Shown here in pieces: positions 1 to 27,939 of a DNA stretch of 36,391 nt (position 1 is its first letter; every line of letters begins with the position of its first letter). Origin of the DNA: a virus (lineage: Duplodnaviria > Caudoviricetes); the IMG/VR virus record IMGVR_UViG_3300037434_000013, positions 1 to 36,391 of that record. The stretch is one strand, 5' to 3'. A program made the translations under genes and the position numbers. The notes beneath the pieces were generated by a model that made no database searches, was not told the origin of the DNA, and worked only from the letters and a program-made list of their open reading frames with translations.

Positions 1-1
1 T

Positions 2-865
2 TGCTTTGGAAAAAATAAGGTAGGGTTTTATGGCGGTGGAAAGAAAAACATTAGTGACATTACAGTTGGCATCGCTGCTAGCATCTCTAAGAATATTGCG
101 GAGTTCCAAGCCGCTGATATCGGAGTTGTTATTCTCGATGAGACACACCACACGCCGGCAACTACTTTCTTCGACATCTCGCAAGGCATGGCAAAATGTG
201 GAAAGATTTTCGGCCTCACAGCCACAGACTATAGGAGTGACGGCAAAGACGTAATGATCACTGCTGGTTGCGGACCAGTACTCATCCGTCGCGATATCAA
301 GTGGGGTGTAGCAAACGGATGGCTCGCAGAACCATATTTCATCGTTAGAAAAGTAAATACAACGGGTAGAGATTTCAAAGACGACAAGTTGAAATCCTAT
401 AAGGAGCATGTTCTAAATTGTCAGATCATGAGAGATCAGATTAAAGATGATGCCCAGAAGATGATGGCTGCAGGTAAAGCCGTACTTATCTTAGTGGATG
501 AAGTTGCTCACGGTCAAGATCTAAGTAAAGAGTTAGGTATTCCATTTGCCACAGGTCTAGATAAGCAATCTCAAGAATACGTCAATCAGTTGAATGCTGG
601 CAAGATTCCAGGTTTAGTTGGAACTGATGGGAAGATCGGTGAAGGCTCTGATACTCAGAATGTAGATGTCTTAGTTCTAGCTAACTTCGTTGCAAGTAAG
701 GGACCAGTTACTCAAGCAGTTGGACGTGGTTTACGTAAGCAGGGTACAAAGACCAAGTGCATCATCTTGGACTATATCCCCATGGGATCGACAATGTTAA
801 GTCGACATGGTTTTAATAGAGTTGGATACTATCAAGAGATCACTGATAAGGTTAAAGTGATATGA
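2..865 (+). CDS. Superfamily 2 (DExH) helicase, UvsW-like; 5' truncated by the window edge
   Basis: The frame of ORF 188..865 is open back to base 2 and contains VILDETHH (motif II), GLTAT (III), IGEGSD (V) and QAVGRGLR (VI). Confidence 0.9.
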   Translation, partial: CFGKNKVGFYGGGKKNISDITVGIAASISKNIAEFQAADIGVVILDETHHTPATTFFDISQGMAKCGKIFGLTATDYRSDGKDVMITAGCGPVLIRRDIKWGVANGWLAEPYFIVRKVNTTGRDFKDDKLKSYKEHVLNCQIMRDQIKDDAQKMMAAGKAVLILVDEVAHGQDLSKELGIPFATGLDKQSQEYVNQLNAGKIPGLVGTDGKIGEGSDTQNVDVLVLANFVASKGPVTQAVGRGLRKQGTKTKCIILDYIPMGSTMLSRHGFNRVGYYQEITDKVKVI

Positions 866-1101
866 ATTTTCGTAGACCAAAGCAAGAAGTTATAAATAAT
901 GCTCACAGTGCTGCTATGAGCTGCGGACAAATGTACGTACCAGATTTTCAGTATATGACCATAGATCAAGCAAAACGAGAACTTCAAAATAGTATAAATC
1001 TTGCTATCGCTAATGCAGTTAGAGCTGGAATCCAAAGTCTAGTAAATGATGTGTACACAGATGAAGAATTTGAGAATGATATCGGTCTCAACAAACCCTG
1101 A
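862..1101 (+). CDS. Hypothetical protein
   Basis: 79-aa ORF with an ATGA overlap on the helicase stop. Confidence 0.7.
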   Translation: MNFRRPKQEVINNAHSAAMSCGQMYVPDFQYMTIDQAKRELQNSINLAIANAVRAGIQSLVNDVYTDEEFENDIGLNKP

Positions 1102-1107
1102 TAGAAT
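1099..1107 (+). promoter_or_regulatory. Extended -10 promoter (TGaTAGAAT), 6 nt before the lysozyme ATG
   Basis: Motif match; the same geometry recurs at several other genes. Confidence 0.6.
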
Positions 1108-1113
1108 CTATAT

Positions 1114-1563
1114 ATGCAAATAAGTAAAAACGGTTTAAATCTAATCATCTCTTTCGAAGGTCTAAAACTTGACCCATATAAAGATTCAGCTGGTATTCCT
1201 ACCATTGGTTATGGAACTATCCTTTATCCAGATGGAACTTCCGTTACGATGGATGATTCCACTATTACTCAGGATCAAGCTTCGCAGTACTTAGAGTGGG
1301 AAGTGAATCAGAAGGCTGCTCACGTTACTAATCTAGTTACAGTACCTGTAAACCAGAATCAATTCGATGCCTTAGTATCCTTTGCCTACAATGAAGGCGT
1401 TGGAGGTCTTGGCGGATCTACTCTACTTAAGTTACTTAACTCAGGTGACTATGATGGTGCTGCTGCTCAATTCCCTAAATGGGACGTAGCTGGCGGACAC
1501 GTGGTAGACGGGCTAGAACGTAGACGTCTAGCAGAACAAGCTCTTTTTCAACAACCAATTTAA
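1114..1563 (+). CDS. GH24 phage lysozyme (endolysin/muramidase)
   Basis: FEGLKLDPYKDSAGIPTIGYG carries the E-x8-D-x5-T triad; also NQNQFDALVSFAYN and GLERRRLAE. Confidence 0.95.
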   Translation: MQISKNGLNLIISFEGLKLDPYKDSAGIPTIGYGTILYPDGTSVTMDDSTITQDQASQYLEWEVNQKAAHVTNLVTVPVNQNQFDALVSFAYNEGVGGLGGSTLLKLLNSGDYDGAAAQFPKWDVAGGHVVDGLERRRLAEQALFQQPI

Positions 1564-1567
1564 AAAT

Positions 1568-1578
1568 TGTGGTATAAT
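1568..1578 (+). promoter_or_regulatory. Consensus extended -10 promoter TGTGGTATAAT driving the tRNA-like/Pth2 cassette
   Basis: Perfect TRTGnTATAAT ending 9 nt before the tRNA-like RNA. Confidence 0.75.
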
Positions 1579-1587
1579 CAAATCTAC

Positions 1588-1669
1588 GGCGGGTTAGCTC
1601 AGTGAAAGAGCACCTATCGGGAGCAATCTTGATAGGAGGTCGGAGGTTCAATTCCATCTCCTGCCACCA
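1588..1669 (+). ncRNA. Anticodon-less tRNA-like RNA with encoded CCA
   Basis: Acceptor GGCGGGT/TCCTGCC+A+CCA, D arm GCTC/GAGC, T loop TTCAATT. The anticodon arm is replaced by CCTATCGGGA-GCAA-TCTTGATAGG (10 bp plus a GNRA loop). Confidence 0.8.
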
Positions 1670-1686
1670 ACTTTAAGAAAGGTTAT

Positions 1687-1713
1687 ATGTCATAGATTAC
1701 TGGTCCTCCCTAA
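1687..1713 (+). promoter_or_regulatory. Putative leader minigene M-S-(TAG)-I-T-G-P-P-TAA
   Basis: ATG TCA TAG ATT ACT GGT CCT CCC TAA preceded by SD-like AGAAAGGT (1676-1683). Function is inferred. Confidence 0.5.
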
Positions 1714-1767
1714 ATCCTATTAAGCTTCGCATAGACTTCAATACTATCAACTTATAAAGGATTTAAA

Positions 1768-2337
1768 ATGAAAACACAAATATCAAAACTCAAGCAAGAC
1801 CTCAAGGGTATTGCAAAAACAATCAGACAACAAAAGAAACTTAGAAAGCCATCTCATCCGCACCACGATAAGTATATCGGTGCCTGGAGTGTAGAGTTAC
1901 TTTCTATACAATATAGACACAAGCATGTCGCTTATTGCCTTGCACGAGGTCGCACTCTAGAGCAATGTGATAGCGGCAATGGCCTTGACATGGACTACGT
2001 CAATTGGCTCCTAGAGGTGATGAACCCGGAGTCTAAAGAGAAACTCTATGTCGTTGTGAATCAAAAGCTAACGGCATCGCAGCAAGCAGTTCAATCTGCT
2101 CATGCAGTAGCTGAGTTCATGAAGAAGAACCCTCACACCCTGTGGACAAATGGTTACCTTATATTACTAAAGGATAATCCATCTTCTCGCGGAGATATGT
2201 CTTACTACGGTGTATGCAACAACTATCAGCATCAGCGAGCAGAATTCATAGAGCCGGATCTTGGTAACAAGATAACCGCATATGCGTTCTTTGGGCCGAA
2301 TGCTACTCAGCAACTCAAGGATAAGTCTCTTCTTTAA
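1768..2337 (+). CDS. Two-domain protein: basic N-terminal domain plus C-terminal PTH2-like peptidyl-tRNA hydrolase domain
   Basis: SD AAAGGA. KLYVVVNQKLTASQQAVQSAHAVAEF resembles the Pth2 first strand/helix (KxVxVVRxDL...AQxAHA); later EFIEPDLGNKITAYA. Confidence 0.7.
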   Translation: MKTQISKLKQDLKGIAKTIRQQKKLRKPSHPHHDKYIGAWSVELLSIQYRHKHVAYCLARGRTLEQCDSGNGLDMDYVNWLLEVMNPESKEKLYVVVNQKLTASQQAVQSAHAVAEFMKKNPHTLWTNGYLILLKDNPSSRGDMSYYGVCNNYQHQRAEFIEPDLGNKITAYAFFGPNATQQLKDKSLL

Positions 2338-2349
2338 TTAGTATAAATA

Positions 2350-2423
2350 GATTGTAGTGCCAACGCGTGACGTGCGCTGGGTAAATGCCGTCCCTACGGG
2401 AAAATAAACTCGGCTACATCAAT
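2350..2423 (+). ncRNA. Candidate small structured RNA
   Basis: GC-rich island in an AT-rich spacer with closing stem TGTAGT/GCTACA, hairpin 2360-2380 and TCCC-TAC-GGGA, downstream of TATAAA (2342-2347). Confidence 0.35.
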
Positions 2424-2426
2424 TTT

Positions 2427-2561
2427 ATGACTGAACGAACTGTATACTTAACTATAATCCTCGGAATGCTCTTAACCATGTGCTATTATTTCTCTTGGGA
2501 AACTCAGCACTATGAATATATTGAGAGTAAGTTCGACATAACATTTTCCCACTGTAAATGA
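2427..2561 (+). CDS. Small putative membrane protein (44 aa)
   Basis: Read by hand: MTERTVYLTIILGMLLTMCYYFSWETQHYEYIESKFDITFSHCK, one hydrophobic segment, no clear SD. Confidence 0.45.
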   Translation: MTERTVYLTIILGMLLTMCYYFSWETQHYEYIESKFDITFSHCK

Positions 2562-2636
2562 TCTCTTAGCTCAATTGGTTAGAGCGGACCCCTCTAAAAG
2601 GTACGGTTATCGGTTCGAGCCCGATAGAGATCACCA
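2560..2636 (+). tRNA. Amber-suppressor tRNA (anticodon CTA)
   Basis: Perfect 7-bp acceptor GATCTCT/AGAGATC, A73 and CCA; D arm GCTC-AATTGGTTA-GAGC; loop CT-CTA-AA (anticodon 2594-2596); T arm ATCGG-TTCGAGC-CCGAT. The anticodon stem has two mismatches. Confidence 0.85.
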
Positions 2637-2747
2637 AGTTTATGCACACGATGAATCTTAATTCACAAGAAGCAAGCAACGCGTATAGTGACCTAATAAG
2701 GCTTCTATGGAAATTAGAAATTATACGCTTAGACCTTCTCGGTCTTC

Positions 2748-3488
2748 CTAATCAACCCAGTATTTGGCGTAAGGGTTTGTATTCTTCGGCTGATAGTATA
2801 TGGATGCAACGTCCTTCATCCCATTTGGATAATCTTTTAGAAGACGATTCATAAAGATCTTGTAACCCAACTTATTCAATAAACTAACCTTACTAACGTT
2901 ATTTCCTAAGTGCCATGCTAGTCGTCTAGCATCTGTGTTACCTATGTCTGTACCGATACAGCTTAATGCTAGGATGATAGCGCTGTATAGGAAGAATGGT
3001 AAGAAAGCTAATCTAATCAAGTAGTGTAGAGGATCTTCTAGACTTGGGAAAGCTGCTGCAGCCATAGCTGCAATAATCTGAGGCTGTCTGGCCATGAAGG
3101 AGTTAGCAGTCCAGGTTCCAGGAGAGTTATTGTTCATGCAACCAAAATATCTGAAGATAGCTCCGAGCATCTTCCTCGGTAACGCGGTATTTCCCATCTC
3201 AGCCATGCCGTTAGTAGCCCCGTAGAAATCGTCTGGTTCTTCTTGATCAGTATCGTTTGGAGCTCTGTTAAGTAATCCATTAGAGTCTACACAAGAACCC
3301 ATTCTAGTATCAAAATCCGTTTGATCTTGAGGGGTTAGGTTGCCAGTCTTCTTGAGCATTATGAAGTACTCGCTGGTATACATCGGTCCATTATCTGATC
3401 CCTTACCAACCGGTGGTTGCGGTTGTGGGTTAGGGGTCATCAGTTTATTTCCGTCTACATATGTCGCGAAGTCATCTTTGATACTCAT
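2748..3488 (-). CDS. Hypothetical protein (the only convincing minus-strand gene)
   Basis: 246-aa ORF with its own TGaTAGTAT promoter 6 nt upstream; ends in TAG. Confidence 0.85.
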   Translation of the reverse strand: MSIKDDFATYVDGNKLMTPNPQPQPPVGKGSDNGPMYTSEYFIMLKKTGNLTPQDQTDFDTRMGSCVDSNGLLNRAPNDTDQEEPDDFYGATNGMAEMGNTALPRKMLGAIFRYFGCMNNNSPGTWTANSFMARQPQIIAAMAAAAFPSLEDPLHYLIRLAFLPFFLYSAIILALSCIGTDIGNTDARRLAWHLGNNVSKVSLLNKLGYKIFMNRLLKDYPNGMKDVASIYYQPKNTNPYAKYWVD

Positions 3489-3494
3489 CTAACT

Positions 3495-3503
3495 ATACTA
3501 TCA
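3495..3503 (-). promoter_or_regulatory. Extended -10 promoter (TGaTAGTAT) in leaderless geometry
   Basis: Reverse complement of atactatca; 6 nt to the ATG at 3488. Confidence 0.55.
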
Positions 3504-3563
3504 CAAGGTTTATGGGAGCCCACCTACAACATCCTAAGATTTAAAGCGCCTTATAGGGCTATC

Positions 3564-3602
3564 TTCGTTTGCGAAGCAAACGAACACGCGCGCTTGCGCG
3601 CG
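3564..3602. repeat. Two adjacent perfect inverted repeats in the divergent intergenic region
   Basis: TTCGTTTGC-GAA-GCAAACGAA (3564-3584) and CGCGCGC-TT-GCGCGCG (3587-3602). Confidence 0.85.
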
Positions 3603-3763
3603 AGACTAACTAAAGCGCAACTAAGGTTTCTAAAAGATAGATTGACTAACAAAACCCTTCTCTATGATACCCACGAAGCGTATGTTTTTCACGCGGCTTG
3701 AAAAATAATTATTAACCACTATGTACGTATGTCTATCTGTATAAATCCATCACGGAGAGATTT

Positions 3764-4282
3764 ATGAGTAATGAATTTAAAGAGGGAACAATTGAACAAG
3801 TTAGAAATAGATATTTTAAGATCAAAGTCGAAATACTCAATGGAGGCAAATTGCCCTATAAAGCAAACCAAACCGACGCGGGGTTTGACCTCTACGCAAC
3901 TGAGGATATTGCAATCTACCCTGGCCAGCTTGCAAAACACCCTCTCAACATCAGGCTTCAATTCCCAGCAGGAACGTGGGCGGAGATCACTTCGAAATCT
4001 GGTCTTGGTTCACAAGGGCTCTTAGTATTCGCAGGTGTGATCGATCAAGAGTATCGCGGCATTCCACACGTCGTCATGTCTAATATTTGGGTAATGGATC
4101 GCTTGGATGAGGACGGTTACCCGTTGATGCGCACCAACCCGATCGTTATCAAGAAGGGTGAGAAGCTTGCACAAATGATCATGAGCCCTTACTCGCCCGA
4201 ATATTTCATCGAGCAGGTAGAGCAAGTAGATACTAATACTACTCGTGGAGCTGGCGGATTTGGAAGTACAGGCAAGACATGA
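3764..4282 (+). CDS. dut: Trimeric dUTPase
   Basis: Five motifs: AGFDL, SKSGL, GVIDQEYRG, AQMI, RGAGGFGSTG; SD GGAG. Confidence 0.95.
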   Translation: MSNEFKEGTIEQVRNRYFKIKVEILNGGKLPYKANQTDAGFDLYATEDIAIYPGQLAKHPLNIRLQFPAGTWAEITSKSGLGSQGLLVFAGVIDQEYRGIPHVVMSNIWVMDRLDEDGYPLMRTNPIVIKKGEKLAQMIMSPYSPEYFIEQVEQVDTNTTRGAGGFGSTGKT

Positions 4283-4716
4283 GTAATGTAGATATAATGC
4301 TAGAACTTAAACTAGTATTAACAGAAATCTTTGGACCTTGTCTTAGAGATTTTCACATAGAACAATTTGGAGGCGTACAGTCCGTACCTTCTATGGGTGG
4401 TCCAATCATGACACAGATGTCACAACCCACTACTAGACTTCATCTTAGATTAGCATTATCAGAATCATACATGATGAGAATGAATCCACAAGGTTCACTG
4501 GAAAATTGGTTAGACCTTGGTCCTAACGCCTTCTGTACAAATCGCTCTCAAAGCTTTTCTAGTAAGACTATGCTTCTTCACGAAATAGAAGTCTCTTATG
4601 CCCTTGTTGGAACAATAGAAGAATTTATAGATTTTAATAAAAACAAGGCTTGGAAACGCTTTAATGCGTTGATAGATGAACAGTTAAGTGAGGTGCTAGA
4701 TGTGGACGATAGGTGA
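4279..4716 (+). CDS. Hypothetical protein
   Basis: 145-aa ORF with an ATGA overlap on dut. Confidence 0.75.
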   Translation: MSNVDIMLELKLVLTEIFGPCLRDFHIEQFGGVQSVPSMGGPIMTQMSQPTTRLHLRLALSESYMMRMNPQGSLENWLDLGPNAFCTNRSQSFSSKTMLLHEIEVSYALVGTIEEFIDFNKNKAWKRFNALIDEQLSEVLDVDDR

Positions 4717-5119
4717 TGTGATCGATATAATGAATGAAGGCGTACCATTCTTTGATTTGGGCACTATGGTAGTTCAAGCAGATCCATCTAATGGTGTTAG
4801 CTTATCTGTAAGTGGTAGCGTAAGATTACCTCTTGAAAAGGCTAAGCATTTAAGTTTCTGTGCTGGTACGGATTTAACTAGCAACATATTTCAAATGTTT
4901 CATCCAGAACTTACAGGGATGAATGGTCTAAGTCAGAGTAATAACTATATGATTATGGGTGCAGGTTACGGTAACAACCATTGGAGAATAGAGAATGGTT
5001 TCGTTATACTTCAAGTTATGTTCTCCTTGCATGAACCTAATATAGCGCAAACAGCTCGTAACATAAGGGACAGTAATTTCTATAGTGTGTTTGAGGCGGC
5101 TTTAAATGATAAAGATTGA
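4700..5119 (+). CDS. Hypothetical protein
   Basis: 139-aa ORF with SD GAGGTG, tiled between its neighbours. Confidence 0.75.
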   Translation: MWTIGDVIDIMNEGVPFFDLGTMVVQADPSNGVSLSVSGSVRLPLEKAKHLSFCAGTDLTSNIFQMFHPELTGMNGLSQSNNYMIMGAGYGNNHWRIENGFVILQVMFSLHEPNIAQTARNIRDSNFYSVFEAALNDKD

Positions 5120-5462
5120 AAACAATAATGTAGCATATTTCGATGTAGACGACACCTTGATCCATTGGAAGTGGGAAGCAGATAGGGATCATGAGAAGAT
5201 CTATATCGGCATTGAGGGAAGTCTTCTTCAAGGCGAAGTAGTTCCACACCATGTTCATATTGAGCGTCTTAAGCGACATAAGGTTATTGGTAATGCTGTA
5301 GTCGTCTGGTCTCGCTCTGGATGGGATTGGGCTAACGCTGTCGTTAAGGCCTTGAATCTAGAGGACTATGTTGATGCTGTGATGGCTAAACCTTTCTATT
5401 ACTATGATGACAAGAAATGTTGCGACATTCTTGGTGAGCATAGATATTGCAATGACGTCTAA
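5106..5462 (+). CDS. Capless HAD-superfamily phosphatase
   Basis: YFDVDDTL (DxD motif I), VVWSRSG (II), KP (III), YYDD (IV). Confidence 0.85.
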   Translation: MIKIENNNVAYFDVDDTLIHWKWEADRDHEKIYIGIEGSLLQGEVVPHHVHIERLKRHKVIGNAVVVWSRSGWDWANAVVKALNLEDYVDAVMAKPFYYYDDKKCCDILGEHRYCNDV

Positions 5463-5492
5463 CTAAGTATAATGCTCCCTACGGAGCAATAC

Positions 5493-6263
5493 TTGGACAA
5501 TCTTTCAAACATCTTTCAAACTAACGTTCGAATTCATAACCAGGACGCTATGAGTCCAAGTGCCGTTTGGCCTAAGAATACAGAGATATGCATCTCGCGT
5601 GTTCCCATTAGGAAGCGAGACGGTTACGATCCTGTTAAGTTCAAGGAGTTTGCAGCTAAGCTCAAGAACTATATGGTTCCCAATGGAATCGTGTTCCTAA
5701 TATGCTACGCTCCAATTGAGGCCAAATGGCGTCCATTCGAGATTGCTAAGATGATGGCTGATGCTGGCTTTACTCACATCGACAATATAGTGATTCAAAA
5801 GACCTGGTATCCAGGCAAGCGCTCTGAAACTAACTTAGTTAACTCACATGAGTATGTTCTTCACTTCTGTAACGGCAATGTCTGGAAATTAGATCGACTG
5901 CCTATCAGGGAATATATGAAGACTGAAGACGATAAGTCTTGTCCAGGTAATACCTGGGAAATTGAAACAGGTTCACTGGACGAGGCATATCCAGTTGACC
6001 TAGCAGAACTCCTAATTAGGATGACAGATTGTTTGCCAGGCTCAGTTATATTCGATCCTTACTGCGGTGGAACAGGTTCACTTAAAGCAGCACTTAAATT
6101 AGGTCATAGTTTCTTCGGCTTTGAGAACGACTCTAAGCAGATTAAGAAGTATGAGAAGGTAGTAAAAGAATATAACAAGGAGATGGACAATGCCGTCAAA
6201 CAGCGGAAACCCGTTAGCACTAAAAAAGTCAATAAGCCAGGCAGTACTAAACCTAATAAGTAG
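5493..6263 (+). CDS. Beta-class DNA amino-methyltransferase-like protein with degenerate catalytic motif
   Basis: SAM-binding FDPYCGGTGS plus HEYVLHF and YPVDLAELLI; the DPPY/SPPY position reads SRVP. The TTG start at 5493 has SD GGAG; the alternative start is ATG 5472. Confidence 0.75.
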   Translation: MDNLSNIFQTNVRIHNQDAMSPSAVWPKNTEICISRVPIRKRDGYDPVKFKEFAAKLKNYMVPNGIVFLICYAPIEAKWRPFEIAKMMADAGFTHIDNIVIQKTWYPGKRSETNLVNSHEYVLHFCNGNVWKLDRLPIREYMKTEDDKSCPGNTWEIETGSLDEAYPVDLAELLIRMTDCLPGSVIFDPYCGGTGSLKAALKLGHSFFGFENDSKQIKKYEKVVKEYNKEMDNAVKQRKPVSTKKVNKPGSTKPNK

Positions 6264-6777
6264 TGGTACTCCTAGTCAAGTAGGTAATCAAAGTTTCTTG
6301 ATGGATGATATCTATCCAGCTATGAGATCCTGTTTCTCTGATGAAGCGGGAAAAGCTCTTCATAATAGAGCTAAGACTACCCTGTATCAATGGGATGAAG
6401 TTAAGGGTCACGAAGGACTCGCTAGTTTATTGCATAAACTTCAATTTAAAACTGGTCACAATGCTTATGCTTGCTATCGACGTGTAGCGCCATGTTTCTA
6501 TTTTGGTGGTGCATGTGAAGGACAGTATATTGAAAAAGTCGCAATGAAGTTAATAGACATGATAAATGACTTAGCATCTAAAAAGTACATATTAGCTACT
6601 TTGGCGCCATTAAGTATAATACAGATGGCACTTACAGGTCCATTAGATAAACAGAAGTATGTAATAGTTTCTTACCTACATCTGGATCAAGTTGGAGAAG
6701 CCTATGTCAAAGCAACCTATCCCCATCTTTGTATGGAAGAGGGTGCTTACCCTAAAGAATTTGGAGACGACGAATGA
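6190..6777 (+). CDS. Hypothetical protein
   Basis: 195-aa ORF with SD AAGGAG upstream, coupled to groEL. Confidence 0.75.
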   Translation: MPSNSGNPLALKKSISQAVLNLISSGTPSQVGNQSFLMDDIYPAMRSCFSDEAGKALHNRAKTTLYQWDEVKGHEGLASLLHKLQFKTGHNAYACYRRVAPCFYFGGACEGQYIEKVAMKLIDMINDLASKKYILATLAPLSIIQMALTGPLDKQKYVIVSYLHLDQVGEAYVKATYPHLCMEEGAYPKEFGDDE

Positions 6778-8507
6778 TATACGAGAAAAGTAAAGCTAAG
6801 AGCATTACAGCAGATAGAGCGAAGATTCGCAGGATCGTGAACGACACGATCAGTGAGATGGCTCAAGTTGTAGGAGCTACTCTAGGACCGGGCGGACGCC
6901 CAGTCATCTTAGAGCGCGACGGCTTGTCTCCTCTTGTAACAAAGGACGGAGTTACCGTTGCTAAGAGTTTAGGAGTTGCAAATGCAGAAGCTAACCTCAT
7001 TATCGAGTCTGCAAAGGAAATTTGCCTCCGTACCGCTAAACAGGCAGGAGACGGTACAACTACAGCTATTGTCCTTGCTAGCGCTATTACGCATCAAGGT
7101 TTAGAGTTCTTAGAAAAGAATCCCAAATACAATCCTCAGCGTATGGTTAATGAACTCAATAGCTTATACGAAAACACTATCGTGCCGTTCTTGAAGCAGC
7201 ACGCGAAACCAGTAAAGGAACGTCATGAACTTATCAATGTTGCTACTATTAGCGCTAATGGAGATGCGGCTATCGCCGTTGCAGCCGTTGACGCAGTTAT
7301 TGCTGCAGGTGAAGATGGTCAAGTACTCATTGAGGAAGCAGATGACTCAGGAATCAGAGTCGAAACGATCGATGGTTGTATAGTAACTAGCGGTCTTAAA
7401 GATATCGGTTCTATTGGTTTAGCTTTCATCAACGATCGTGCTGGTCAGCAAGCTAAGCTTGATAACGGTCTTGTGTTCCTATACGACGGAACGATGAACG
7501 ATCTTAAGGTTCCAGCTGCTATCCAACAAGCTGTTGGAGCAGAAGATTCACCCATGTATGGAAGACCTATCCTTGTGTTTGCGCATGGATTCTCTGACGT
7601 AGTTTTAGACAAGATGGCTAAATCAACTAAGGGTGGTTATTCTATTATTCCAGTTAAGACTCCACTTGGAGGCGTTGCCAACTCTCGCTCTATGTTCTTG
7701 TATGACATGGCTGCATATACGGATGCCGACGTTGTTGATGTTGCTAACTTAGAGTTCTATGCAGCAGAAGATACACTAGACGAAGCATTTGGTTCTTTCA
7801 TTAATGCTAAGATTAATATGTACGAGACGTTCGTTACATCAGAACAGAATCATGAGAAGATTGAAGCTCGTATCGCTGAACTAAAAGCTATTGCGGAAGT
7901 TGCTCCAGATGAGCGTCAAAAGATGTTCGCTAAAGCCGCTATCAGTAAATTGACCGGTGGCGTTTCTACTATCTGGGTAGGTGGCGGATCTGAATTAGAA
8001 GCCAGAGAGAAAAAAGCGCGTGTTGAAGATGCAGTTGAAGCGGTACGTTCTGCTATCGCCGAAGGTATTATTCCTGGCGGTTGTGGAGTTCATTTAGTGC
8101 TTTCGGACATTATTGCTAAGACGGAAAATCGTCCCTTGTCTTGGGACATCATGATTCATGCTCTTAGAGCTCCATTTGAAGTTCTATTATCTAACTGCGG
8201 TGAAGATTTCACAGATGTGTGGAATGCTTTAGAGAGACACATTGTTGGTCAGAAGCAACCACCTCAGTATATCTTCGACGCCAATGCGCACAAGATTGTT
8301 AATCCTTATCAAGCAGGTATTATTGAACCTGCGAAGGTCTGTAGGGTGAGTTTAGGTAACGCTCTCTCTGTAGCATCACTGTTGATCACCTTAGGCGGAA
8401 TTGTTGTTACCCCACGTGACGGAGCTTTCGAGAACCAATTAGGTATCGCTCGCGACGCATTTAAAACTATGATGGACCCTAATACAGGTATCGTAGGACA
8501 GGAGTAA
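6774..8507 (+). CDS. groEL: Phage-encoded group I chaperonin (GroEL-like)
   Basis: TLGPGGR, TKDGVTVAK, AGDGTTTA, ATISANGD, REKKARVEDA, GIIEPAKV. Confidence 0.95.
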   Translation: MIYEKSKAKSITADRAKIRRIVNDTISEMAQVVGATLGPGGRPVILERDGLSPLVTKDGVTVAKSLGVANAEANLIIESAKEICLRTAKQAGDGTTTAIVLASAITHQGLEFLEKNPKYNPQRMVNELNSLYENTIVPFLKQHAKPVKERHELINVATISANGDAAIAVAAVDAVIAAGEDGQVLIEEADDSGIRVETIDGCIVTSGLKDIGSIGLAFINDRAGQQAKLDNGLVFLYDGTMNDLKVPAAIQQAVGAEDSPMYGRPILVFAHGFSDVVLDKMAKSTKGGYSIIPVKTPLGGVANSRSMFLYDMAAYTDADVVDVANLEFYAAEDTLDEAFGSFINAKINMYETFVTSEQNHEKIEARIAELKAIAEVAPDERQKMFAKAAISKLTGGVSTIWVGGGSELEAREKKARVEDAVEAVRSAIAEGIIPGGCGVHLVLSDIIAKTENRPLSWDIMIHALRAPFEVLLSNCGEDFTDVWNALERHIVGQKQPPQYIFDANAHKIVNPYQAGIIEPAKVCRVSLGNALSVASLLITLGGIVVTPRDGAFENQLGIARDAFKTMMDPNTGIVGQE

Positions 8508-11980: not shown

Positions 11981-12007
11981 GTTGGGTTAATGTTTAAGGG
12001 TGTGATC

Positions 12008-12016
12008 TGTTATAAT
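12008..12016 (+). promoter_or_regulatory. Extended -10 promoter (TGtTATAAT) in leaderless geometry
   Basis: 6 nt before ATG 12023. Confidence 0.65.
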
Positions 12017-12022
12017 CACTCT

Positions 12023-12481
12023 ATGACTACCAAAAAATGCACTTCATGTAAAGAAGAAAAACCAACTAGCGAATTCTATGTTCGCAAGGATAGAAATACT
12101 TTTGTTTCTGCTTGTAAAACTTGTACAATAAAAAACAATTTTACATACAGAGACAAAGAACATCAAAAGGCCTACAAGGCCGATTATCATAAGAATAACT
12201 TACCTAGAAAATTGCGTAATGACTTAAAGAAATACGGTTTGACGTTTGATCAGTATAATCAAATGTTAGATAGGCAGAATAAGTGTTGCGCAATGTGCAA
12301 GTTACCGCCTAGTGCAAATAAAAGATTATCTATAGATCACTGTCATAGTACGGGTAAAGTGCGCGGATTACTGTGCAGTAATTGTAATTTTATATTGGGA
12401 CTTGCTAAAGATTCCCCTGCTGTTTTAAAAAATGGTGCGTATTATTTGGAGAAATATGAAAACTACATTGAAGAAACCTAA
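12023..12481 (+). CDS. Endonuclease VII-family (His-Me finger) nuclease, probable free-standing homing endonuclease
   Basis: CAMC...LSIDHCHSTGKVRGLLCSNCN plus an N-terminal CxxC...CxxC; start moved from 11990 to 12023. Confidence 0.88.
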   Translation: MTTKKCTSCKEEKPTSEFYVRKDRNTFVSACKTCTIKNNFTYRDKEHQKAYKADYHKNNLPRKLRNDLKKYGLTFDQYNQMLDRQNKCCAMCKLPPSANKRLSIDHCHSTGKVRGLLCSNCNFILGLAKDSPAVLKNGAYYLEKYENYIEET

Positions 12482-13019
12482 ATACAATCAAAATTCTGCT
12501 ATTAGGGGAGCTTTAAGAAGAACCTTCTCTCGAAGTCCTATCGTTAAAGAAGTCATGATGAAGTCAAGGAGAGAAGTTGCAAAATACAACAAAGATGGAT
12601 CTAGATCTAAAAAAGATGCTGTTCAATATCTCTGTGGCACTTGTAGCCAATGGTCTAACAGTACCTCAAGTGCAGTCGACCACATCTCTCCTGTTGTTGC
12701 TGTGGAAGATGGATTTGTTGACTGGAATAACTTTATCGCTAGGCTCTTCTGCGGGCCCGATAACCTCCAAGTCATTTGTGATACGTGCCACAACGAAAAG
12801 ACAAGTTCTGAAAGAATAGCTCGTCTAACAATACAATACACAGAAGAACTTTATGGCTTTGAGATGGCAGTAATGCAAGGCATTATTCCCGCTGACTGGA
12901 AAAAAATTCTTGGAAAGTATATCGCTAAAAAGAAGACCAAGGGTTTGGAACAGATAGTAGAAAGAGCTAGAGCAATTAAATCTCATATTGAAGGAAGTTT
13001 AAAAAATGGCAAGTATTGA
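12456..13019 (+). CDS. HNH endonuclease
   Basis: CGTC...VDHISPV...NLQVICDTCHNEKT; SD GGAG before ATG 12456. Confidence 0.85.
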   Translation: MKTTLKKPKYNQNSAIRGALRRTFSRSPIVKEVMMKSRREVAKYNKDGSRSKKDAVQYLCGTCSQWSNSTSSAVDHISPVVAVEDGFVDWNNFIARLFCGPDNLQVICDTCHNEKTSSERIARLTIQYTEELYGFEMAVMQGIIPADWKKILGKYIAKKKTKGLEQIVERARAIKSHIEGSLKNGKY

Positions 13020-19500: not shown

Positions 19501-19947
19501 ATGAGTGATATTACCAAAAAGGTAGACATCACTCGTCTAGCCCACTACGTAAACAAGATAGAGGAGCTGTCAACTATTAGCAAGTTGATGGCTCCTGTTT
19601 ATCTTCAGGATTACATTATGGGTCAAGACGTTGCTGCTAATCTACTTGCGAAAGCAATGCAGTCCGATTCTAAAGCAAAAGCGAAGGTTGAGCAGGCCGA
19701 AGCAATTGCATATCTTGAACGCGCCAAAGACTACCTAGAAGCGCGCGGTATCAAGGACACTAGCGAAGCTCGTAAACAATATGTAAACATCGATCCAGAT
19801 GTTCTTCAAGCTAAGGATGATAGAGCCATGACGGAGGCTTTAGTATCATTAATGAAGAGCAAATTATCTCAATTGAGACAAGCACATGACGATCTAAAGA
19901 AGATTGCTTATGGCGATCAAAATATGACAAACTACGAAGGAATGTGA
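19501..19947 (+). CDS. UvsY-like recombination mediator (putative)
   Basis: Helical 148-aa protein with ARKQYVNIDPDV, between SSB and RecA. Confidence 0.5.
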   Translation: MSDITKKVDITRLAHYVNKIEELSTISKLMAPVYLQDYIMGQDVAANLLAKAMQSDSKAKAKVEQAEAIAYLERAKDYLEARGIKDTSEARKQYVNIDPDVLQAKDDRAMTEALVSLMKSKLSQLRQAHDDLKKIAYGDQNMTNYEGM

Positions 19948-20477
19948 TGAAGATCTGTTCTAAGTGTTTTGATAATAAATCTTACTGTGATTTCTATGTT
20001 AGACCATCGTACAAAGACGGTTACAGTTCTTGGTGTATAAATTGTACATTAGAATATGGAAAAACATATAAGGTTCAGCATCTTGAAGATAAGAGAATTA
20101 AGCAAAGAGAGTGGAGAAAGCAAACTGATTATTGTTCAATATACTTAAGTGATATTAACAATAAATTAGCACATACTTTGAGAAATAGAGTTGGTGACAT
20201 TATAAGAGGGAAAATTAAAATAGGTTCTGCTGTAGATGACTTAGGTTGTTCTATAGAAGAACTAAAGAATTATTTAGAGTCTAGATTTCAACCTGGAATG
20301 ACCTGGGATAATTGGTCGATTAACGGTTGGCATGTAGATCATGTTAAGCCATTATCTTTATTTGATTTGTCTAATTTAGAGCAGTTTAAACAGGCTTGCC
20401 ATTACACAAACTTACAACCTTTGTGGGCGAAAGATAATTTGGTAAAATACAATAAGGAGATAGGGCGTAATGGATAA
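19944..20477 (+). CDS. HNH homing endonuclease
   Basis: GCSIEELKNYLE...MTWDNW...WHVDHVKPL...HYTNLQPLWAKDN plus an N-terminal CxxC finger. Confidence 0.88.
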   Translation: MMKICSKCFDNKSYCDFYVRPSYKDGYSSWCINCTLEYGKTYKVQHLEDKRIKQREWRKQTDYCSIYLSDINNKLAHTLRNRVGDIIRGKIKIGSAVDDLGCSIEELKNYLESRFQPGMTWDNWSINGWHVDHVKPLSLFDLSNLEQFKQACHYTNLQPLWAKDNLVKYNKEIGRNG

Positions 20478-27309: not shown

Positions 27310-27333
27310 GTGTTTATATGGTACATTTATAAG

Positions 27334-27939
27334 ATGAAACGTTGCGGTGGTTGTTTAAAAGATCAACAATTAAGTGAATACCATAAAAATAATAGGACTT
27401 TAGACAGCCTTAATACGTCTTGCAAAACATGTGTAGCCAAAACTTCTGCAAAATATAGAGCGAAAAATAAGTCTAAAATAGCTGATGTAAAAAAGAAATG
27501 GTACGAAGCTAACAAGGATCAGGCTTTGAACTATGCTAGTGAATACTATAAGAATAACAAGAGTGTTGTCATTAAGAAGGTTGTTGAATATAGAAGAAAT
27601 AGACTAAAGGTTGACCCTATATTCAAATTGCAAAAGAACATGCGTCATAGGCTTAGTAATTTATTAAAACAGCAATCTTCAAGGGTTGCTATCAATTTCT
27701 TGGGTTGTACATTAGATGAATTTAAGATCTATATTGAGTCTAAATTTTATAACTATATGACTTGGGACAGCTATGGACAATGGGAAATAGATCATGTTAA
27801 GCCATTGGCTTCTTTCGATCTCAGTGATCCTAATCAGTTGAAGGCGGCTTGTCATTATAGCAATCTTCAGCCACTATGGAAGCAAGATCATGTTACTAAG
27901 ACAACTAACGATGTAAGGCAATCGAAGGGTACAATATAA
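27334..27939 (+). CDS. HNH homing endonuclease between terL and portal
   Basis: GCTLDEFKIYIE...MTWDSY...WEIDHVKPL...HYSNLQPLW; paralogous to 19944..20477. ATG 27334 lies 6 nt after TGgTACATT. Confidence 0.88.
   Translation: MKRCGGCLKDQQLSEYHKNNRTLDSLNTSCKTCVAKTSAKYRAKNKSKIADVKKKWYEANKDQALNYASEYYKNNKSVVIKKVVEYRRNRLKVDPIFKLQKNMRHRLSNLLKQQSSRVAINFLGCTLDEFKIYIESKFYNYMTWDSYGQWEIDHVKPLASFDLSDPNQLKAACHYSNLQPLWKQDHVTKTTNDVRQSKGTI

Follow-up and report, generated by a model that had tools for sequence, protein, structure and literature searches.

A tRNA-shaped RNA of tailed phages, its anticodon arm replaced by a sealed hairpin, as a candidate partner of an adjacent Pth2-fold protein

The best explanation for an anticodon-less, tRNA-shaped RNA encoded by a large tailed phage is, in our view, that it may be an uncharged tRNA mimic which binds the adjacent Pth2-fold protein, a reading to which we assign a probability of about 0.45 and in which binding, expression and function are all putative. 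The RNA lies in a 36.4-kb piece of phage DNA (the window, meaning the whole 36,391 nucleotides analysed) that also carries genes for helicase, endolysin, dUTPase, GroEL, DnaE, terminase, portal and capsid (features around the RNA are given in Table 1). It is a real feature and a new form among the non-decoding tRNA look-alikes of phages, and the stop-codon-sensing module around it is apparently undescribed. A phage with recoded stop codons (code 15) was considered and rejected, as the genes pack tightly under table 11 and TAG ends 2 of the 47 genes examined.

Table 1. Coordinates of the RNA, its parts and its neighbours in the window, with three comparable start regions in named phages
Feature	Position	Strand	Basis or remark
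Endolysin gene	1114..1563	+	synteny marker upstream, outside the module
Extended -10 promoter-like element (TGnTATAAT type), 9 nt ahead of the RNA	1568..1578	+	sequence; activity inferred
Anticodon-less tRNA-shaped RNA, 82 nt, ending A73-CCA	1588..1669	+	register, Rfam, folding, orthologs, covariation
Acceptor stem	1588-1594/1659-1665	+	
D stem	1597-1600/1608-1611	+	
10-bp hairpin replacing the anticodon arm, GCAA cap at 1623-1626	1613-1622/1627-1636 (span 1613..1636)	+	z -5.7
Variable loop	1637-1641	+	
T arm (G49-C65, G50.U64, A51-A63), predicted weak EF-Tu binding	1642..1658	+	PMC3239215 Table 2
A73-CCA	1666-1669	+	
Ribosome site (1675-1682) and leader frame Met-Ser-UAG-Ile-Thr-Gly-Pro-Pro-UAA (1687-1713)	1675..1713	+	
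Hairpin predicted to mask the ribosome site of the next gene	1711..1765	+	constrained folding, 30 loci
189-aa protein: basic helical-hairpin domain and Pth2-fold domain (~residues 88-189)	1768..2337	+	
tRNA with CUA anticodon (amber suppressor type), two mismatches in the anticodon stem	2560..2636	+	
Ribosome site, start and in-frame TAG, XacN1 ORF364	L492 ~1440-1464		
Ribosome site, start and in-frame TAG, ME3_195	L493 ~1986-2022		
Ribosome site, start and in-frame TAG, CBB_406	L495 ~1990-2088		

The cloverleaf body of the RNA has its acceptor, D and T arms and CCA end all present, as in a decoding tRNA, and is matched by the Rfam tRNA model (RF00005) at 38.2 bits (gathering score 29, E 2.2e-5). 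A sequence-only reading of the window had placed these arms in tRNA register around a 10-bp GCAA-capped hairpin; all of them are confirmed in that register, as are the D loop without GG, the T-stem mismatch (A51-A63) and the G4.U69 wobble that it had listed. The acceptor has a U7-U66 mismatch besides the wobble, leaving six of seven pairs formed, and the ten pairs of the hairpin include two G.U. Alone, the hairpin arm folds at -12.2 kcal/mol, a stability reached by 0/300 shuffles, and the whole RNA folds with a z of -3.8 (1/200 shuffles equally good); its minimum-energy fold retains acceptor, D arm and hairpin, with a slipped T-arm register. ARAGORN at default settings did not call the RNA, and the tRNA-Asp(atc) call that it made at a lowered threshold was rejected as a forced parse. 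The -10 element ahead of the RNA was not listed by a two-hexamer promoter scan.

Ortholog loci were fetched through the downstream protein (101-sequence alignment A1), blind to the RNA, and the close set consists of 28 distinct loci with 46-100% protein identity and enough upstream DNA. The slot between endolysin and leader is filled by the RNA in 22 of the 28, 21 parsed by script and one (L046, which has an extra base in the T stem) by eye; in the other six the RNA is missing, with the leader and the Pth2-like gene still there. At L056 the slot before the leader holds only a 7-8-bp hairpin with a tRNA-like beginning and an ACAA end, possibly the remnant of a microhelix. Neither the window nor any of the parsed orthologs (0/21) has a canonical 17-nt anticodon arm, that is a 5-bp stem and 7-nt loop with U33 and a purine at 37, which supports the earlier suggestion that the RNA cannot decode. 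The ortholog arms range from 11 to 37 nt, three of them shorter than normal, and 14/21 fold better than 95% of shuffles. Their caps, labelled partly by hand, are GNRA in eight (within a 6-nt loop in L042 and L218), UUCG in two and an A-rich loop in 11, where N-U-A-A is kept and the triplet ahead of the A run is CUA, UUA or GUA.

Covariation was counted in nine of the 21 orthologs, selected for arms of 23-25 nt, and 93.6% of cells were paired, a level matched by 0/500 shuffles in a control that ignores relatedness, with slid partners giving 37-51%. In these length-matched orthologs two-sided changes occur at all ten arm pairs and at six of the seven acceptor pairs (L211 was left out of the DNA alignment). 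Mapped on the protein tree, the GNRA caps need seven changes, at least three of them forced by well-supported branches. Because the arm pairs covary while arm lengths and caps differ among orthologs, closure of the arm is conserved, and its length and cap type are not. The sequence-only reading had taken the GNRA-capped 10-bp extension as selected rather than decayed; selection is borne out for the closure, by the 22 filled slots and the covarying arm and acceptor pairs, and the 10 bp and the GNRA cap fall away as conserved traits. The outcome it had named as contrary to its claim, relatives with a normal 7-nt loop and an extension that does not covary, is the reverse of what the relatives show.

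Kept across the orthologs are the D stem, the variable loop, the CCA (20/20, in a parse that does not require it) and the T stem, with G49-C65 in 20/21, G50.U64 in 19/21 and U51-A63 in 19/21. Summed from Table 2 of PMC3239215, the predicted EF-Tu penalty is 1.9-2.1 kcal/mol in 18 of the 20 scoreable orthologs, whereas 25 scoreable CUA tRNAs from the same loci have a median of -0.4 and reach 1.0 kcal/mol at most; that paper gives the G49-C65/G50.U64 context as non-additive, binding EF-Tu more tightly than the additive sum, and the window RNA is unscored, its A51-A63 pair being absent from the table. This T stem is also common among phage tRNAs of the ordinary kind (a list of 86 bodies consists mostly of tRNAs with normal anticodons), which is why it was rejected as a family marker. 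The acceptor is variable, with 13 different 5' strands and a discriminator that is A in 16 and G in five. The alanine identity pair G3.U70 occurs in 0/21, and G4.U69, a weak alanylation signal in eukaryotes, in 5/21 and together with A73 in the window; the GG of the D loop survives in 5/21. The varied acceptor strands, the absence of G3.U70 and the choice of A or G at position 73 suggest that no single synthetase would charge the family.

The surroundings of the RNA are laid out regularly. A -10-like hexamer lies 6-13 nt upstream of position 1 of the RNA, and the leader starts 14-21 nt after the CCA, in 21/21 parsed orthologs, and an amber leader of the Pro-Pro type is found at 27/28 close and 30/68 distant loci, some of which do not have the RNA. 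Folding of 30 loci, with a block reaching 13 nt beyond the P site, predicts that the ribosome site of the next gene goes from a median openness of 0.004 with the ribosome at UAG to 0.65 at Pro-Pro-stop, the gain exceeding 0.2 in 25/30; the values predicted for the window are 0.27 and 0.64. In translational attenuators of the leader-peptide kind, the position of a ribosome on a short leader opens a hidden ribosome site, and a proline before a stop slows release. On these folding predictions the leader would fit such an attenuator, having a ribosome site to itself and, over the site of the next gene, a hairpin that opens according to ribosome position. Neither this amber-gated leader nor the suppressor tRNA of the operon had been noticed in the sequence-only reading.

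A CUA tRNA lies near 57/70 Pth2-anchored loci. In the window and its relatives these tRNAs vary in acceptor and discriminator (A, U or G), often have mismatched anticodon stems and have no single amino acid identity that is evident; L036, L039, L040 and L042 each carry two. A second leader type, Met-x-UAG-...-Gly-Phe-Thr-stop, takes the place of Pro-Pro-stop in L062, L085, L239, L256 and L259. At seven further loci (L014, L417, L440, L443, L471, L115 and L134) the sole nearby ATG opens a short stop-ended frame, ending His-stop in five, and the Pth2-like domain is in the +1 frame, with either a programmed shift at the stop codon or an overlapping AUU start as possible routes; the RNAs beside the Pth2-like gene in L417, L440 and L471 have 6-7-nt loops ending UUAA.

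The C-terminal domain of the neighbouring protein was modelled with a pLDDT of 95 and superposes on 1wn2 with Z 11.2 and an rmsd of 2.5 A over 100 residues; the top 12 Foldseek PDB matches listed are all Pth2-type entries, and a profile match to 2zv3 has an E of 4e-7. By the gathering score the domain does not fall into Pfam PF01981: the window protein has no hit, and three of 101 relatives have one, the best with E 0.03. The catalytic residues of Pth2 are the lysine of a Gly-Lys pair and the threonine of an Asp-Ala-Gly-x-Thr loop. Like the Pth2 hydrolases, the domain has the fold and retains the Gln and His of the first helix; it differs from them in a Gln at the usual lysine (74/103 proteins, with Lys not among the five commonest residues there), in a loop shortened relative to solved Pth2 in profile alignments, and in the extra N-terminal helical domain. 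For this basic helical hairpin no family was found in Pfam, PHROGs or the ESM Atlas, and its structural matches are generic helical hairpins. The full fusion protein has no match among isolated phages, and GTDB yields four distant loci, in metagenome-assembled bins without a host clue.

We propose that the RNA would mature like a tRNA into an uncharged, CCA-ended mimic and use its acceptor-T helix to bind the Pth2-fold protein, whose gene lies 100 bases downstream; for Pth1, which has an unrelated fold, binding is reported to involve this helix and no other region (PMC3488237). In the Pth2 gene the ribosome site would stay hidden until a ribosome reads through the leader UAG and reaches Pro-Pro-stop, so that the protein would depend on the CUA tRNA of the operon or on weak release-factor activity. 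Once made, the protein would act on tRNA 3' ends, either damping readthrough of stop codons or clearing up its aftermath. The promoter would supply the RNA without any gate, and by titrating the protein the RNA would fix the threshold of the readthrough feedback loop. The RNA is likely to descend from a tRNA paralog that reads stop codons. More tentatively, we regard it as possible that standard-code phages hold here a three-part translation module consisting of a suppressor tRNA, a catalytically rewired Pth2-fold protein made only on readthrough and a dedicated anticodon-less RNA that binds the protein; the RNA could then be reducible to a minihelix, and might act as an inhibitor or as an RNA subunit of the protein.

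The association with Pth2-like genes extends beyond this clade. A wider class was defined by scanning viral contigs for the GG-less D arm alone, which gave 87 distinct tRNA bodies, nine of them with a canonical arm, compared with 24/38 GG-loop bystanders at the same loci and 85/103 tRNAs at other tRNA loci. A Pth2-like domain is encoded on the same strand within 2.5 kb (<=2.5 kb) of 28/87 of these bodies and of 2/80 control loci, one of the two being a member of the class itself. With canonical arms and the clade of the window removed, the counts are 22/75 (15 of them adjacent) and 1/79 (Fisher p 3e-7, a value that ignores relatedness), and the other 53/75 have no Pth2-like gene within 2.5 kb. 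The 28 neighbouring proteins fall into 16 clusters at 50% identity and nine at 40%. Among 26 Pth2-like genes outside the clade, eight have an in-frame TAG a few codons past the start, six a plain ATG and the remaining 12 no in-frame ATG found by script. Only 5/21 orthologs have the D loop by which the wider class was defined, so it does not follow that the two are one family. The link is thus partial, and also against it, long-arm tRNA-like loci lie near a Pth2-like gene in 6/80 and odd tRNA bodies were seen by eye at only ~5/83 distant Pth2-anchored loci (49 with full flanks). Scanned for minihelices, 113 Pth2-anchored metagenomic loci (228,159 bases) had none; the background is 3 in 762,640 control bases. 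As a separate observation, the GG-less D loop is accompanied by A57 in 78/87 bodies and by U56 in 24/87 (0/38 controls); a compensating A19-U56 elbow pair is possible, and the combination is a handy signature for anticodon-less phage tRNAs.

Among isolated phages, a DNA search with the RNA returned only T-arm or D-arm matches to ordinary tRNAs. Distant Pth2-like domains do match isolated phages, and of eight named-phage regions examined, six hold no anticodon-less RNA. Mycobacteriophage IkeLoa has, ~10 nt after the Pth2-like gene and ahead of a CUA tRNA, a 77-nt RNA that is missing from the annotation; it has an acceptor, T arm and CCA and no anticodon loop, and the stretch is common to 203 records. 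CCA-ended folds stand in tandem in Bigswole (three), Morizzled23 (three) and Cane17 (two), and in Myrna the interval from gp84 to a tRNA with a CUA loop holds two bare minihelices of 34 nt and one mini-tRNA of 54 nt. Judged by these arrangements, cluster C mycobacteriophages show the same trio of anticodon-less RNA, Pth2-like gene and CUA tRNA. The unit is thus present in cultured phages of M. smegmatis, and binding, charging and the readthrough switch are therefore directly testable. The sequence-only reading had offered the RNA as a ligand of the neighbouring Pth2 fusion; the genomic part of that idea gains support from the 22/75 against 1/79 and from the cluster C trio, and the binding itself we infer. 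Unannotated tandem CCA-ended look-alikes or minihelices from cluster C mycobacteriophages can be found at L496 2876-3116, L500 417-700 and L497 2338-2461, and the Myrna record has two overlapping features labelled tRNA-Ser, one with a CUA loop and the other with no anticodon.

In ME3, CBB and XacN1 the third or fourth codon of the Pth2-like gene is an in-frame TAG, which lies ahead of the start given in the annotation (Table 1), and on this placement it is a likely target for the suppressor tRNAs of those phages; the XacN1 paper, in the text available, found no target for its CUA tRNAs (PMC5852040). A CUA tRNA is present in the ME3 region. The Pth2-like gene is longer in XacN1 and RAS14, and the extra N-terminal part in XacN1 has an HD-like motif.

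The same observations can be read in other ways. The RNA might be a free decoy for host defences that target tRNA, whether anticodon nucleases or modifiers of the 3' end such as toxSAS, MenT-type and acetyltransferase toxins, with the Pth2 neighbourhood reflecting a shared role in counter-defence. We think this unlikely, although a kept CCA and core on an acceptor of free sequence would suit it, as would the 53/75 class RNAs away from Pth2-like genes, and phage tRNAs are known as counter-defences (PMC11555353). However, no defence gene or target was identified, and a decoy does not predict direct adjacency to the Pth2 gene in 15 of the 22 linked cases. The decoy for anticodon nucleases put forward in the sequence-only reading finds no support here: colicin E5 is described as reading the anticodon loop, other anticodon nucleases do likewise, and in this family the loop is missing and the arm hypervariable. 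Spacing raises another alternative, that the sequence is a cis-acting 5' element of the mRNA, either a stabilising fold or a processing signal that sets the end and lifetime of the leader-Pth2 message. The spacings to the -10 box and to the leader in 21/21 orthologs would suit such an element, as would the L056 slot with only a small hairpin, but L048 has cleanly lost the RNA and kept promoter, leader and gene, RNAs of this sort sit downstream of the Pth2-like gene in other phages, and a stabiliser would not need a fixed T stem; we consider it improbable.

To a similarly small degree we credit a ligand of the ribosome, which could either be charged, as a codon-independent peptidyl acceptor on the model of the tmRNA TLD (tRNA-like domain) that the Pth2-fold protein then recycles, or uncharged, as a 'terminator' tRNA for ribosomes stalled at stops. 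An operon logic centred on stop codons, the CUA, UUA or GUA triplets in the loops of 11 orthologs and the G4.U69 of the window with A73 (G4.U69 in 5/21) point in this direction. Arms of 11-37 nt could not all be expected to fit the decoding site, however, a tag frame is lacking, and none of the 45 window proteins scanned is SmpB-like; the tmRNA-like acceptor of the earlier reading also loses ground through G3.U70 in 0/21 and a T stem predicted to be weak for EF-Tu. That the RNA is a functionless, decaying duplicate of the suppressor tRNA is very improbable, and largely refuted already by the covarying pairs. Loss at 6/28 close loci, degenerate D and T loops, two stem mismatches in the window copy and the two CUA tRNAs of some relatives would all agree with decay; the two-sided changes in 6/7 acceptor and 10/10 arm pairs, the 14/21 arms that fold better than 95% of shuffles and the GNRA caps with their seven tree changes (at least three forced) would not. 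A normal tRNA with a short intron, of the kind reported in Lak phages (PMC6784885), is scarcely credible: the extra sequence is indeed in the anticodon arm, but excising any one block gives no canonical loop in the window and could give one in just two of the 18 orthologs whose arms exceed 17 nt, and three ortholog arms are shorter than normal.

In relation to known RNAs, the uncharged mimic that we favour shares with a canonical class I tRNA or a phage tRNA(CUA) the 7-bp acceptor, D stem, 5-nt variable loop, T arm and encoded CCA, and the A-rich loops of 11 orthologs resemble CUA/UUA anticodon loops; it differs in having no 7-nt loop with U33, in an arm of 11-37 nt, in the absence of D-loop GG from 16/21 and in the lack of shared identity elements. 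Non-decoding tRNA look-alikes in phage genomes include T4 species 1/2, the stable tRNA-like RNAs of T5 and the Y RNA YrlA, which has a closed acceptor end and Ro60 as partner; for the present RNA Rfam reports only the tRNA model. A tmRNA identity was rejected (ARAGORN found no tmRNA, Rfam only the tRNA model over 1-8000, and there is no tag frame), and the RNA was likewise rejected as a decoding tRNA, a tmRNA domain or an intron-bearing tRNA by the arm, G3.U70/tag and excision tests. By analogy, the proposed mode of action comes closest to that of the TLD-only RNA found in mycobacteriophage DS6A, for which titration of SmpB has been proposed (PMC4131195); with that RNA and the tmRNA TLD the present RNA shares a tRNA top half without an anticodon loop. 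As far as the available text of that paper describes them, the phage RNA differs from both in lacking G3.U70 (terminal G-C in 13/21, not fixed) and a tag frame, in its full D stem and long closed arm where SmpB would sit, and in its proposed partner, the Pth2-fold protein. The irregular tRNA polycistrons and allo-tRNAs of soil metagenomes are comparable in not being charged by E. coli synthetases (shown for theirs) and in possible suppressor tRNAs nearby (PMC5389517, PMC7609411). In the examples described, the acceptor branches are 8/4 or 9/3 or there are extra loops, and anticodons are retained; the phage RNA, 7/5 with a sealed arm, is set apart by these descriptions.

The prfB gene is autoregulated at a stop codon. 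The amber leader shares with leader-peptide attenuators, prfB and the lambda bar minigenes (PMC8012679) a short leader and a stop-codon sensor, and differs in an amber gate read by a phage tRNA and in its output, the Pth2-fold protein. Pth2 (PF01981) has been noted in jumbo phages (PMC7824862) and in the tRNA arrays of cluster C mycobacteriophages (PMC5966550), with neither an RNA partner nor an amber gate described in the accessible parts of those papers. We found no description of the RNA or of the module in the literature searched, subscription journals being largely outside it and supplements outside it; novelty could be affected by the supplements on irregular tRNA polycistrons (PMC5389517) and with the XacN1 tRNA table (PMC5852040). 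Many phages with the normal code carry an amber suppressor tRNA without known purpose, and tiny tRNA look-alikes of this sort are missed by default annotation. Here a divergent Pth2-fold protein is tied to an amber gate and an anticodon-less RNA in one recurring unit. If the proposal is true, no member of the Pth2 fold with an RNA partner would have been known before, and the orphan CUA tRNAs in jumbo phages and in mycobacteriophages of cluster C would have an explanation.

Elsewhere in the window, non-coding stretches at 2340-2460 and 2640-2750 lie among the Pth2-like gene, the CUA tRNA and a minus-strand gene of 246 aa, and small ORFs at 2385-2561 and 2642-2854 had no family hits. Four endonuclease VII or HNH-type genes (11990-13019, 19944-20477 and 27310-27939) are interspersed among the replication and packaging genes and are likely to be free-standing homing endonucleases.
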